Source: a virus. Taken from it: a stretch of DNA of 52,734 bases. Shown in pieces: positions 1 to 52,734 of this stretch (positions are counted from its first letter, which is position 1; the number at the start of each line of letters is the position of its first letter). The stretch lies in the UHGV virus genome UHGV-0124967; one strand, written 5' to 3'. The notes under the pieces were generated by a model, which had not been told where the DNA came from, did not search any database, and was given only the letters and a program-made list of their open reading frames with translations. The position numbers and the translations under genes were made by a program.

Positions 1-1646
1 GTTTCGCTGCTTAACTTACCGTTACTGACTACACATGTGGACCGTTCGGACTTTACCCGCATACCAATAAGCATTTTTTCCAGCCCGGCATTTTCATTTA
101 TTCGTCGGTCTGAACCACCTATATCACAATACGGAAAACCGTCGTACCCACCTGATGAACCAAACCCCATTACGATCCCCGCATCTGCCTGATGCCGGTA
201 TGTGTCAAAAACACGCGGTGCTGCATTTGGCGTTTTATACCAGTTCTTATGTACCTCACAAAGAACCGTAAAAGGAAGATTATAAAGGTTATTCTTGATT
301 GGGACTATCACCATATCGCTTGCCCGCGTTGCTGGTGTCGACCCCGTAACAATAAAAGATGATGCGCCTGCACCAGCCTCAATCTGTGGAGTGGTTACAT
401 CGAGACAATCCCCTGATGCCACCATCTGACCTGTATCCGGAGAATACTGGACTAAACCACCAACCGTATTTTCTGTTGTATTTGCTTTTAATGTAGCCTC
501 AAAAAATATCCAGCCAGTTGCATCATCCTTAACAGACCTTGCTGTAACACGGCTTGTCTGACCTGTCTTGCTAATTATGCGGGTGGTAAGGTTCAGGCTT
601 GCTGTTCCTATTGATGTACTTCCCTCCCCATCATAATGTTCAAATAAAATACGAACGGCGATATTATCAACTTCACTTTTTACCCGACAGGATATAGTTA
701 CATACTTTTCGTCCCCTGAAGTATCAACCCCTCCGGCACTCGAATACAGTCCGATAATGGTATGCGCTTTATTTGTACCAACAATCGAATCCCGTACGAC
801 AAACCGGCCATAATTAAACCCAAAACTATCTGTGCCTGTTTCTGTAACGTCCAGTGAATTTGACTTATTCCACTTCGAAGGGTCTGTACTGTTTATTAAC
901 AGGTTTGTGCGCGTCCCCTCAATCAGTAATCCTTCGCGTTCAAAACGTGGCTCATTAATACCAGCCACAGTTAAAACACCTGATTTGTTAATGTAAGTAG
1001 CAGTGCTTACGCGTGAGAAAGAAACAACTTTATCTGATGATATTGTTTTTTCTTCCCCATTAATGGTTACTTTTTTAGTACCAGGGCCGTAGCCCGTGAT
1101 CATATCGAGAGAATCGTTAAACGGTATCCATACGTCCGGCAGCGGTTGCAAAACATACGCGTAAGGCTGTGCGGTCTGATTGGCGTATTCGTGGGCTTCG
1201 TCTCTGTATGTCTTAGCTGAATCGGCTGCGCTTGTCGCTGTTGTTGCAGCGTTGGTTGCAGTGGTAGCTGATTGTGATGCTAATTTTGAGGCTGAAATCA
1301 CATCTTTGTTGTCGCTAAAAAATTCAACTGCGTCCGCTATTTCTGATTCTTTGCCCTGATAGTAACGCAGTGTTTCGGCGACATCCTGAGCAAGACCATC
1401 CACAGAGATCGAATCTGAAAGCAGGATGCTAAATTTAGTTCCAGCCGGAATAGCCGGACTTGCCGCAGGAGTTACCGACAAACTTGTTGCGCTTTTTACC
1501 TTTGTGATTGAAAAAATCTGCACCGGATCGCTAATGGCAATAAGAGTGCAACCCACTCTGATCAGAGATAATGCGGCGTTGAATTCAGTCCCTGCCCCGG
1601 TAACTGTGTTTCCGCTAACAGCTATAGTGCCTGTTGTGTAAATCAT
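1..1646 (-). CDS. tail fibre protein, N-terminal ~548 codons; 3' end beyond window start
   Basis: Minus-strand frame open from ATG 1646..1644 (GGAG complement at 1655-1658) to position 1, absent from ORF track only because it runs off the edge. Begins MIYTTGTIAVSGNTVTGAGTEF. Lies downstream of J. Confidence 0.7.
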   Translation of the reverse strand, partial: MIYTTGTIAVSGNTVTGAGTEFNAALSLIRVGCTLIAISDPVQIFSITKVKSATSLSVTPAASPAIPAGTKFSILLSDSISVDGLAQDVAETLRYYQGKESEIADAVEFFSDNKDVISASKLASQSATTATNAATTATSAADSAKTYRDEAHEYANQTAQPYAYVLQPLPDVWIPFNDSLDMITGYGPGTKKVTINGEEKTISSDKVVSFSRVSTATYINKSGVLTVAGINEPRFEREGLLIEGTRTNLLINSTDPSKWNKSNSLDVTETGTDSFGFNYGRFVVRDSIVGTNKAHTIIGLYSSAGGVDTSGDEKYVTISCRVKSEVDNIAVRILFEHYDGEGSTSIGTASLNLTTRIISKTGQTSRVTARSVKDDATGWIFFEATLKANTTENTVGGLVQYSPDTGQMVASGDCLDVTTPQIEAGAGASSFIVTGSTPATRASDMVIVPIKNNLYNLPFTVLCEVHKNWYKTPNAAPRVFDTYRHQADAGIVMGFGSSGGYDGFPYCDIGGSDRRINENAGLEKMLIGMRVKSERSTCVVSNGKLSSE

Positions 1647-1843: not shown

Positions 1844-2089
1844 ATGAAAAAACTAATTGTTGCTTGCATCTTATCAGCTCTGTCTTTTGGTGCTTTTGCT
1901 TCTGTAAATTCGACAGATAAGAGTGATGCTGGCACTGCTCAATATGGTGATACTGGCCTTGATAACCAACGTTCGAGTTATTTCAATACTGACTCATGGA
2001 AAGAAAAACAACTACAAGGTAAAATTATTGACAGTGAATGTAATTTACCTATCCATTTTTCTGGTGTAAATGATGGGTGTAAAAAATAA
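1844..2089 (+). CDS. small secreted protein, 81 aa (tail-region moron), function unknown
   Basis: ATG at 1844 with AAGGTGA 8 nt upstream; MKKLIVACILSALSFGAFA looks like a cleavable signal peptide; two Cys in mature part; opposite strand to flanking tail genes. Confidence 0.55.
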   Translation: MKKLIVACILSALSFGAFASVNSTDKSDAGTAQYGDTGLDNQRSSYFNTDSWKEKQLQGKIIDSECNLPIHFSGVNDGCKK

Positions 2090-50573: not shown

Positions 50574-50803
50574 TGGATAAAACCGGGACAATCCTTCTTA
50601 GTCGCCCTGCCATCTGCCGGATGCTTGGGGGAATTAGCAGGGGAACGTTTTACTTATGGCGTAAAAAATGGGAACGGAACGGAACTCCGTTCCCCGACCC
50701 GGTTGACGTACTTGGGACCGGGCGTGGCGTTATGTACCGCTATCAGGACGTAATGCAGTTCTTTGATCGGATTGGTTTAACGTCAGCCAAAGATAACACA
50801 TAA
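50573..50803 (+). CDS. AlpA-family HTH regulator / putative excisionase
   Basis: 76 aa; LGGISRGTFYLWRKKWERNGTPFPDPVDVLGTGRGVMYRYQDVMQFF pattern; convergent with integrase 3' end. Confidence 0.65.
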   Translation: MDKTGTILLSRPAICRMLGGISRGTFYLWRKKWERNGTPFPDPVDVLGTGRGVMYRYQDVMQFFDRIGLTSAKDNT

Positions 50804-51958
50804 TCAGCAAACTTATTTAGTGCCTCCTTTTGTTCATCAAGATAATCATATTTGTCGTACACCGCCAGTATTCCCCTTAATGAATGGCCTAAGATCTTTT
50901 CTGCAATATGTACCGGAACACCTATAGCTGAAAGGTGTGTCCGGCACGTCCTGCGGAGGTCGTGACAGGACCATGATTTACCGCCCATCCTTTTACGCAC
51001 GAATATTGCAGCTACTTTTATCACTGATACGTTTACTGGCCTGTTGCCGCCGTTAATCACTGGCGGGAATACATAATCATACTCATGGGAGGTTAAAACC
51101 TCCCTGAGCATTTTTATCGACAAGTCAGATAATCCCCGCCTGATTTCACTTCTTGTCTTCGCCACCGCCGCCGGAACGGTCCATACACCGTTGTCCAGAT
51201 CTAGGTGTTCCCTTCTCATTTTCTGCAATTCACCAACCCTGCACCCGGTTAGCAATAATAGCTTTAAGGCTATTTTGTTCTGCGGATAGATCTGCGAACT
51301 GTCTACCGTGCGCCAGAAGTGGCCTATCTCCTCACATGAAAGGTAACGCTCCCCCCACCGCATAATGCTCGCCAACGTCAGCTACACGGATATTGTTTAT
51401 CGCCGTGTTAGTCATTAGCCCACGCCTGATTGCGCTGTTAACGATGATTTTCATTCGCTTCAATATCAAACCAGCCGTAACCGCGTGACCCGCCGCAGTG
51501 ATCTCGCCAAATATATCCATCCACTGTTTTGTCGTTACGTCGTCAGCTATGTAGTCGCCGTACTTGTTGACTACGTGGCGCATCAATGCGCTTTTGACTT
51601 CTTTATATGCCACCAGCTTAATGACGTTCGGCAGGGATAGATAGTCTTCCACTACGTCGGATATAGATCGCTTGCCCTGCTCAAAGGCTATGGCCTGCTT
51701 TACGCACAGTGCCGGATTCTTCCCTTTCGTAAGCAACTCCCTGTATTCAGACACCGCATAGCGGGCGTCTTTCAGACTCATTTTCCCGTATTCACCGATC
51801 TTCATTCGCACTGGCTTACCGTTGAATCTGTAACGGTACTGGAAAGTAATTTTCCCTTTTGGGTTTATCCTGGCTGACAGGCCATCACGATCAGCTATCT
51901 CGCTTGGACCGTCGTATGGCTTGTTGGCGATGGCCCTTAACCTGGTATCCGTAAGCAT
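50743..51958 (-). pseudogene. tyrosine integrase disrupted by a frameshift
   Basis: Two overlapping frames (51332..51958 N-terminal, 50743..51375 C-terminal with HDLRR, LGHS, AVYDKYDY motifs). They meet at a C6 run (51351-51356); deleting one base would give continuous ...GEHYAVGERYLSCEEIGHFW.... Could be a real pseudogene or a sequencing error. Confidence 0.7.
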
Positions 51959-51972
51959 GTTGCCCCCCCATT

Positions 51973-52235
51973 TTTGGTCACGTTTTGGTACACAGTTTTT
52001 GTTGTACGGATATTAACAGTATTGTACGGAATTAGAAACGTGATGCCGGGTTTTGGTTACAACTTTATGATTTTTAAGTGATTTTATTGACGTGATTGAA
52101 CGGAGTTAAACGCCTTTAAACATAGTGCGCTGGTCCTGTCTGGAATGATTAGTGTAACGAATAATCATTTATAAAACATAATGTTATGTTGTTTTTGATT
52201 TTAGTTTTTGATATTTGGTCACTATTTGGTACACA
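51973..52235. repeat. two copies of a ~22-bp direct repeat flanking an AT-rich region; candidate integrase arm sites / att region
   Basis: TTTGGTCACGTTTTGGTACACA (51975-51996) and TTTGGTCACTATTTGGTACACA (52214-52235); each is itself a tandem of TTTGGT(C/A)AC. Confidence 0.35.
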
Positions 52236-52263
52236 AAAAGAAACGAGGCGTTAGCCTCGTTTC
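52235..52263 (-). terminator. rho-independent terminator for minus-strand gene 52307..52591
   Basis: GAAACGAGGC-GTTA-GCCTCGTTTC followed on minus strand by T5. Confidence 0.5.
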
Positions 52264-52306
52264 TCGGCGATGCTTTCAACATCACCATGCTATCACTGCC
52301 GCATCA

Positions 52307-52591
52307 TTAAGCCCATGCGCGGACGCCTGGATCTGGAACGATGAAAGGCTCAAGCTGAGAAATATCAACATCGTCACCAGTTATACGCACGTTGACGTAA
52401 TAACCTTTTTTTCCAATAAGTACAGGTGTCTCGCTTTCTGGATCGTCGAATACAAGGACAAAACCGATATCATCAATAAACACGGTTGACCAATTGGCAT
52501 CCAGCCAGCCGCTATTAATCACAATGTCGTTGTATTGCTGTTTGTCAGTAAATTGCAAGCTAACGTCTTTCATGTTAACCACCTTAAACAA
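52307..52591 (-). CDS. hypothetical protein, 94 aa (outside or at edge of prophage)
   Basis: Track ORF with AAGGTGG RBS; followed by terminator. Confidence 0.45.
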   Translation of the reverse strand: MFKVVNMKDVSLQFTDKQQYNDIVINSGWLDANWSTVFIDDIGFVLVFDDPESETPVLIGKKGYYVNVRITGDDVDISQLEPFIVPDPGVRAWA

Positions 52592-52593
52592 TT

Positions 52594-52734
52594 TCGCTTA
52601 ATTGCGCATCAGTTAATGCCTTATGCCATACTCGAAAATTTCTAACATGACCAAATAAATGACGTTGTCCTGTCGTTGTCTGACCACCGATACGAATAGT
52701 TGCGGAGCTTTGAATATAAGTCCAGGTTGTTTTT
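52594..52734 (-). CDS. C-terminal fragment of a protein with a LamG/jelly-roll-like terminus; gene starts beyond window end
   Basis: Open minus frame from window end to TAA at 52594; ends ...GQRHLFGHVRNFRVWHKALTDAQLSEIV. Confidence 0.4.

Follow-up and report, generated by a model that had tools for sequence, protein, structure and literature searches.

The partial open reading frame (ORF) that runs off the right end of the DNA analyzed here (52,734 nucleotides, hereafter the window) is the 3' end of the side tail fiber gene of the same phage that occupies the rest of the sequence. Judging from the continuity of its two ends, the window represents one complete, circularly permuted phage genome that was linearized inside the side fiber gene. 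Hence, the apparent oddity at the right edge is an artifact of where the circular genome was opened. We consider it very probable that three elements together explain this region: a phage's own side fiber split by linearization, a lectin-like mode of action that we infer for this fiber, and an 88-aa protein acting as partner of the distal fiber module. The features on which this interpretation is built are listed in Table 1.

Table 1. Position and strand of the features discussed in the text (window coordinates).
Feature	Position	Strand	Remarks
Side (lateral) tail fiber gene, 5' 1646 nt	1..1646	-	ATG 1646-1644; GGAG Shine-Dalgarno upstream of ATG
81-aa ORF with signal peptide (MKKLIVACILSALSFGAFA...)	1844..2089	+	phrog_2243, E 1.6e-4; between J and fiber
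J-like central tail fiber / host specificity protein, 1517 aa	2129..6682	-	phrog_31, E 0; synteny
Tyrosine integrase	50743..51958	-	Two overlapping ORFs, 208 + 210 aa
attP core GTCCTGTCTGGA	52133..52144	.	12-bp overlap of integrase arm and fiber arm
Intrinsic terminator closing the late/tail operon	52230..52265	-	12-bp stem 52265-52238, 4-nt loop, U run
88-aa ORF	52307..52573	-	ATG 52573, stop 52307-52309; phrog_1361 (function uncharacterized), E 1e-28
Side (lateral) tail fiber gene, 3' end	52584..52734	-	Last base of codon 549, codons 550-598, TAA

A sequence-only reading of this DNA had described a partial minus-strand ORF that leaves the window at the right edge and is followed by a small ORF, and both the translation and the ORF list bear this out. 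The frame is open at position 52734 and ends at a TAA codon (52584-52586) after the C-terminal residues ...HLFGHVRNFRVWHKALTDAQLSEIV; translated on the minus strand, positions 52580-52733 (154 bases) give KTTWTYIQSSATIRIGGQTTTGQRHLFGHVRNFRVWHKALTDAQLSEIV, followed by the stop. At the left edge, another minus-strand ORF starts at 1646 and is open at position 1. The two bases left over at this edge and the single base at 52734 make up an in-frame codon, and the closed frame (1646..1 plus 52734..52584) is one ORF of 598 aa, with codons 1-549 on the left and codons 550-598 on the right. This protein has the same length as RefSeq WP_178318141.1 and is identical to it at 585 of 598 residues. Moreover, the last 300 nucleotides of the window joined to its first 300 match contiguous DNA of the Escherichia coli M1/5 prophage (locus L001, 12303-12902) at all 600 positions, that is, 100% identity without gaps. 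The blastn alignments to Dru_SM1, KurtStettler and an unrelated prophage locus (L009) also cross the junction, passing from 52593/52609 to about position 550. In a megablast search of complete E. coli genomes, the right-edge region matched at prophage edges, where the genes are annotated as 'phage head spike fiber domain-containing protein' and 'hypothetical protein'. In E. coli M1/5, the complete fiber gene spans 1797 nt and closely follows that of the J-like tail tip fiber. Because of the continuity at the junction and the in-frame join, the two ends of the window must be adjacent in nature and belong to one permuted genome. Two facts support circularity: four independent genomes are exactly continuous with the window across the junction, and the window is one genome unit long. 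A double lysogen in tandem, if sampled over a single exact unit, would appear equally circular, with no effect on the gene assignment. Annotation of this genome must therefore join both ends of the window; if they are left apart, a putative receptor-binding protein of 598 aa is missed and only two fragments of it appear.

The phage in the window is an mEp021-like temperate coliphage of the mEpimmI group. About 80% of the window aligns at about 85% nucleotide identity with mEp010, mEp021, mEp044, mEp515, mEp554, and MagusPhagus. Genomes of the mEp021 group (mEp010, 013, 021, 044, 515, 554, and MagusPhagus) measure 53-55 kb, and the 52.7 kb of the window correspond to one genome of this type. 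These phages have been described as 'mEpimmI' non-lambdoid temperate coliphages, and the M1/5 prophage is listed as a member (PMC11893012). When the circle is cut at attP, the gene order agrees with that of the M1/5 prophage. The attP site itself was located by comparison with the ends of this prophage. On the integrase side, window positions 51701-52144 align with the int-dgcM junction of the M1/5 prophage, at the dgcM/ydaM locus; on the fiber side, positions 52133-52400 align with the zntB-side junction. The window carries attP with phage arms on both sides, which corresponds to the excised or circular form, and neither attL nor attR. Therefore, no host DNA is present at this edge. The type I integrases of the mEpimmI group insert at ydaM (dgcM) (PMC11893012), in agreement with the location of attP in the window. 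We could rule out a tRNA-associated att site, as no tRNA or tmRNA gene was found across the whole window.

The integrase gene is read as two ORFs because of one extra base in a homopolymer at about 51349-51354. Compared with the integrase genes of mEp021 (404 aa) and M1/5, which are intact, this C6 tract has one base more; the extra base is either a genuine frameshift that inactivates the gene or a mistake of sequencing or assembly. Of note, the attP core is flanked by a 25-nt direct repeat, ATTTTTGGTCACGTTTTGGTACACA, at 51970-51994 and 52211-52235 (the second copy being 88% identical), with a third partial copy at 52051-52060. These repeats are candidate arm-type binding sites for the integrase.

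On closing the circle, the side fiber gene starts 483 nt downstream of the gene for the J-like protein, at the end of the tail operon. The J-fiber synteny is alike in M1/5, Dru_SM1, and KurtStettler, which also have a small opposite-strand ORF at the place equivalent to that of the 81-aa ORF. In relatives of the phage, the slot of this ORF harbors superinfection-exclusion lipoproteins (PMC11893012). Downstream of the fiber gene lie, in this order, the 88-aa gene, whose translation is coupled to that of the fiber, a strong terminator, attP, and the integrase gene. A terminator after the small ORF had already been proposed in the sequence-only reading, and the hairpin detected at this place has a fold energy of -33.9 kcal/mol (z = -5.1 against shuffled sequences). 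A terminator is also annotated at the homologous spot in mEp554, mEp044, mEp010, and mEp013.

The same reading had considered that the DNA at the right edge could be of host origin or belong to the distal end of another mobile element next to the prophage. Neither proposal survives the circular join, the attP analysis, and the synteny described above, and both were rejected. A flank of host chromosome comprising the fragment and the small ORF would fit the situation in E. coli genomes, where this DNA forms the outermost part of a prophage next to zntB/ydaN and host DNA nearby is to be expected. However, the ORF of the fragment runs in frame into the left end of the window, the two ends being contiguous in the M1/5 prophage (600/600), and the sequence upstream of the fragment is that of a phage tail fiber and not of an ordinary host gene. 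Moreover, the fiber and small gene pair is present in virulent phages that never integrate, and no tRNA or host gene was found in the right-edge region, where attP lies beside the fragment. In M1/5, host DNA starts only at the equivalent of window position 52132 and extends leftwards from there, whereas the window has its integrase arm at this place. The chance that this DNA is of host origin is, in our view, close to nil.

That the fragment stems from another mobile element or prophage directly beside this one also seems very improbable, even though the fiber module is mosaic. It shares 95-98% identity with virulent Seuratvirus DNA over the last 126 nt, and its distal domains occur on several unrelated N-termini; therefore, the module does move between phages. 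Nevertheless, the 5' part that the fragment lacks directly follows the J gene of this very phage at the left end of the window. The single M1/5 prophage has an identical order of J, small opposite-strand ORF, fiber, 88-aa ORF, terminator, and att, the 52.7-kb window accounts for one mEp021-type genome, and attP, with both of its phage arms, lies between fiber and integrase. In addition, no second set of phage or mobile-element core genes and no second att site were present between the fiber and the rest of the genome, and no non-phage DNA or second element was encountered to the right of the window, as the right end continues into its own left end.

The 598-aa protein split by the linearization is predicted from its family assignments to be a lateral (side) tail fiber of the PHROG 1419 type. 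Its layout comprises an N-terminal anchor (residues ~1-110), a helical stalk (~77-160), a domain resembling the head spike fiber of gene transfer agents (GTA; 241-442), and a C-terminal jelly roll. Most of this layout, up to the larger portion of the jelly roll, is encoded at the left edge of the window, while the right-edge fragment supplies the last strands and the terminal helix of the jelly roll. Among the PHROGs, residues 120-598 match phrog_1419 ('tail protein', E 1e-214), and the first ~150 residues match several 'tail fiber' families. The central domain scores 66.5 bits against the NCBIfam model NF048003 (GTA_spike_fiber domain, residues 241-442), well above the cutoff of 36. When PDB sequences were searched, residues 3-156 matched the N-terminal region of the Klebsiella phage depolymerases 7vyv and 7lzj (E 4e-28), and residues 207-457 the head spike fiber of RcGTA, 6tb9 (E 7e-4). 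The modularity of the fiber was assessed in a search of 1.8 billion cluster representatives, of which the 50%-cluster representatives were taken for profile work; the list of close relatives was left out as too uniform (at least 89% identity). Residues 1-110/150 are common to dozens of fibers with other distal parts, at 58-84% identity, and residues ~165-598 recur behind other N-termini. An AlphaFold2 (AF2) model built from 47 diverse sequences has a mean pLDDT of 85, with a small N-terminal beta domain and a beta-rich part (170-598) with pLDDT above 90. The helical region 77-159 is modeled with low confidence, as expected, because a trimeric stalk was modeled as a monomer. The best multi-domain matches returned by Foldseek were the tail fiber chains of the Pseudomonas phages Pa193 (E 2e-7) and E217 (E 2e-6). 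An S74 intramolecular chaperone was also considered and rejected, since the Pfam search gave no match to the Peptidase_S74 domain (PF13884) in the 598-aa fiber, which has a LamG-like end instead.

The terminus of the fiber had been noticed in the sequence-only reading as resembling laminin-G and concanavalin (ConA) domains. This likeness holds at the superfamily level, as indicated by profile comparisons and by AF2 and Foldseek. The sequence of the window itself reaches only 23 bits with Pfam Laminin_G_3 (PF13385; residues 542-594, E 1e-4), below the gathering threshold of 27.6 and covering only model positions 98-150. We aligned the last 169 residues of the fiber with 41 diverse homologues, and 36 of these 42 C-terminal domain sequences matched Laminin_G_3 at E <= 0.01, the best at E 4e-13. 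Searched against the PDB, the profile of C-terminal homologues matched ConA-like jelly rolls (E 2e-5 to 4e-3) from the botulinum neurotoxin BoNT/D Hc, an S-layer domain, C-reactive protein, a SAP-like pentraxin, laminin alpha-1, and neurexin. The modeled residues 445-598, with pLDDT above 90, adopt the curved two-sheet beta-sandwich of a jelly roll. With this domain, Foldseek matched CBM40 and C-reactive protein at a probability of 1.0 and target TM scores of 0.56-0.60. The other single-domain matches were lectin-like domains of botulinum and tetanus toxin Hc (BoNT Hc-N, with a probability of 1.0 for the botulinum toxin), an adhesion-GPCR pentraxin-like domain, and laminin LG domains. The signature G-H-[IV]-R-N-[FL]-R-[IV]-W-H-x-A-L-T-D-x-Q corresponds in the model to the last core strand (577-585) and the terminal helix (591-597). 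Altogether, profiles and model identify the C-terminal domain as a probable ConA-like/LamG-type jelly roll, at the level of the superfamily and not as a member of the laminin-G family proper.

This architecture suggests how the fiber might work. The protein would act as a trimer, with the N-terminal domain anchoring it to the tail tip and the helical stalk mediating trimerization. [quoted passage not shown] These domains could bind a surface polysaccharide (O-antigen, LPS, or capsule), and such binding would provide a reversible first stage of adsorption before J engages an outer-membrane protein. Lateral fibers of small siphoviruses have been proposed to bind O-antigen as a first, reversible receptor (PMC8594841), and capsular polysaccharide is the ligand of the RcGTA head spike fiber (PMC10218006), the only relative of the central domain that has been characterized. 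The homologue of KurtStettler is curated in the BASEL collection as a 'lateral tail fiber protein', and the position of the gene, behind J and a small opposite-strand ORF and before an accessory gene, is the usual one for side or lateral fibers of siphoviruses.

We weighed whether the protein could instead be an enzyme, namely a depolymerase or tailspike that breaks down capsule or O-antigen. Its 156 N-terminal residues match the corresponding region of the Klebsiella capsule depolymerases 7vyv and 7lzj, the ConA-like fold also houses glucanases and lyases, and Foldseek lists a GH43 arabinanase among the matches of the fiber. However, the homology with the depolymerases is limited to residues 3-156 and the remainder of the 7vyv and 7lzj chains is unmatched, while the GH43 matches have an rmsd of ~26 A over the whole chains. 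The fiber is devoid of a beta-helix, and no catalytic domain was recovered in the Pfam or NCBIfam searches. Its best single-domain folds (CBM40, pentraxin, BoNT Hc-N, and LG) are those of non-catalytic binders. A depolymerase is in our opinion rather improbable, and both sequence and model favor a trimeric lectin-like adhesin, because catalytic, beta-helix and S74 domains are absent and the best folds are non-enzymatic binding modules.

The small gene that follows the fiber gene encodes a protein of 88 aa. The sequence-only reading gave its length as 94 aa, and the mechanical ORF list gives this length from a TTG codon (52591), with an overlap with the end of the fiber gene. We corrected the start to the ATG at 52573, which is the start in all homologues and in the RefSeq annotation of E. 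coli M1/5 (WP_001530176.1); the TTG was rejected, as both the alignment of homologues and the position of the Shine-Dalgarno sequence favor the ATG. This Shine-Dalgarno sequence, TAAGGTGG, lies 5 nt before the ATG and overlaps the fiber stop codon, and the gap between the two genes is 10 nt. In this arrangement, the 88-aa gene is translationally coupled to the fiber gene. Its product belongs to PHROG 1361, and the homologues measure 88-92 aa and share 27-40% identity; they occur in Seuratvirus, in T5-like phages (L6jm, Stokescottia), in MatMar-like phages, and in other E. coli prophages. Eight positions are invariant among them (M1, D3, F8, W23, G37, N61, R63, and W87). The AF2 model of the 88-aa protein (pLDDT 91) has a strand-helix-helix-strand-strand-helix topology.

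A homologue directly follows a LamG-ended type of fiber in each of 87 loci, comprising 80 loci from IMG/VR and seven distant contexts. In the IMG/VR set, which represents the best 80 of 329 relatives, the homologue was found in every case ~0-11 nt from the fiber stop or overlapping it. These loci were retrieved with the C-terminal domain and are close relatives (at least 77% identity) rather than independent samples, and most of the weight is for this reason carried by the seven distant contexts. All seven of these, with at least four different fiber N-termini, have the small gene after the fiber; they include Seuratvirus, the T5-like L6jm, and two other prophage or phage types. Across the contexts examined, the stop codon of the fiber gene and the start codon of the small gene often overlap. 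Accordingly, the 88-aa protein is inherited together with the distal fiber module and not with the anchor.

Searches by similarity gave no lead on its function. No significant match of any kind, including to known fiber chaperones (of the lambda Tfa and T4 gp38/gp57A types), was obtained for the 88-aa protein in Pfam, NCBIfam, or PADLOC, and its profile retrieved nothing from the PDB sequences. Foldseek against the PDB gave nothing significant, the best match having an E-value of 0.013 and a TM score of ~0.4 (ferredoxin-like/S10/NusG/PII-type), and the structural neighbors in BFVD were only uncharacterized phage proteins. We estimate at roughly an even chance that the 88-aa protein is a dedicated assembly or folding factor of the fiber, or a bound accessory subunit of its distal module. 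Three features make such an assembly or accessory role the best guess: the linkage to the distal module, the coupled translation of the two genes, and the fact that these fibers have no intramolecular chaperone of their own. In a wider sense, PHROG 1361 may represent an undescribed class of trans-acting partners of LamG-ended fibers, either a chaperone replacing S74 or a small distal subunit or adaptor, that moves with the distal module among mEpimmI, Seuratvirus, T5-like, and other siphoviruses. We put this idea forward tentatively, with a little less than even expectation.

The 88-aa ORF might also be an independent moron at the end of the operon, with a function such as superinfection exclusion or anti-defense and no role in the fiber. 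Its place as the last gene before the terminator and attP is a classic moron position in temperate phages, and the absence of a match to known fiber chaperones would be in line with this view. However, virulent phages of the Seuratvirus and T5-like types conserve the small gene at the equivalent position, where its start codon often overlaps the stop codon of the fiber gene, and this conservation makes an unrelated moron less likely. Furthermore, it follows the distal fiber module in all 87 loci, it has no promoter match of its own, and its Shine-Dalgarno sequence overlaps the fiber stop. The protein also has no signal peptide, no transmembrane segment, and no PADLOC match. A moron is thus an unlikely explanation, and a role linked to the fiber remains our preferred reading.

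The fiber is essentially identical to proteins that RefSeq already annotates, and the phage is a member of a group that has been described. This fiber is a predicted host-range determinant of an ordinary and widespread kind in E. coli phages, and the small PHROG 1361 protein is strictly linked to it. If the 88-aa protein is needed to fold or complete LamG-ended fibers, it would have to accompany fiber swaps in phage retargeting.

Comparison with known systems places the fiber and its small gene in a wider context. The closest counterpart is the M1/5 prophage (NZ_CP053296.1; WP_178318141.1 and WP_001530176.1), with a fiber of the same length, 100% identical junction DNA, and the same order of J, small ORF, fiber, 88-aa ORF, and prophage end. 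In M1/5 the phage is integrated and its 88-aa gene is followed by host zntB/ydaN, whereas the window is the excised circular form with attP. The 13 substitutions between the two fiber proteins all fall within residues 213-447. In lambda, the Stf fiber gene is followed by the small accessory gene Tfa, and both lie between J and attP-int. The window has its fiber and small gene in the same place of the genome and in the same arrangement; however, no sequence relationship with Stf/Tfa was detected, and the 88-aa protein does not match Tfa-type families in Pfam, NCBIfam, or PHROGs. A further difference from lambda is the integrase gene of the window, which has the orientation of the tail genes. 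A remote homology links the central domain of the fiber (241-442) to the RcGTA head spike fiber Rcc01080 (PDB 6TB9). Unlike the fiber studied here, Rcc01080 is a head structure of a gene transfer agent and not part of a siphovirus tail, and it has no equivalent of the N-terminal anchor or of the C-terminal LamG-like domain.

The Seuratvirus phages KurtStettler (Bas22; bas22_0022 and bas22_0023) and Dru_SM1 have a fiber that is ~60% identical to residues 115-598 and has the same LamG-like terminus. This fiber is located after J and a small opposite-strand ORF, and it is directly followed by a PHROG 1361 protein of 91-92 aa with 33-36% identity to the 88-aa protein. In contrast to the phage in the window, both are virulent, carry a different N-terminal anchor, and have a further fiber or 'chaperone' gene after the small protein. 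The segment at window positions 52609-52734, in alignments that continue over the junction to about position 550, stands out in these comparisons, as the last 126 nt are 95-98% identical to KurtStettler and Dru_SM1 and the rest only ~73-75%. This patch is a local mosaic that results from recent exchange between temperate and virulent phages.

The gene order in the T5-like phage L6jm is LtfC, a LamG-ended fiber in the LtfA slot, the small protein, and a Peptidase_S74 fiber in the LtfB slot. The branched LtfA/LtfB fibers of DT57C and DT571/2 bind O-antigens (PMC4728585, PMC10713586), and both LtfA and LtfB of DT57C end in S74 autocleaving chaperone domains (PMC4728585). In comparison with DT57C, the fiber of the window has no S74 domain and no second fiber gene beside it. 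The PHROG 1361 gene lies between a LamG-ended fiber and a Peptidase_S74 protein in Salmonella phage L6jm (L007, 2644-7019) and in the loci L009 and L010 (2986-6390), and in another locus (L005, 4159-5691) it precedes a gene annotated as 'putative lateral tail fiber chaperone'. The succession of fiber, PHROG 1361 gene, and second gene resembles the LtfA/LtfB layout of branched fibers. The window and other mEpimmI prophages have no such second gene, and their small proteins form a separate clade of 88 aa.

Within the mEpimmI group, mEp021 itself (L003, 9030-10379) has a different gene at the fiber position, encoding a 449-aa 'tail structural protein', with no PHROG 1361 gene after it. Therefore, the side-fiber slot is an exchangeable cassette in this group. 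The mass spectrometry data available for the mEp021 virion deal with a fiber allele other than that of the window, mEp021_82 (PMC11893012).
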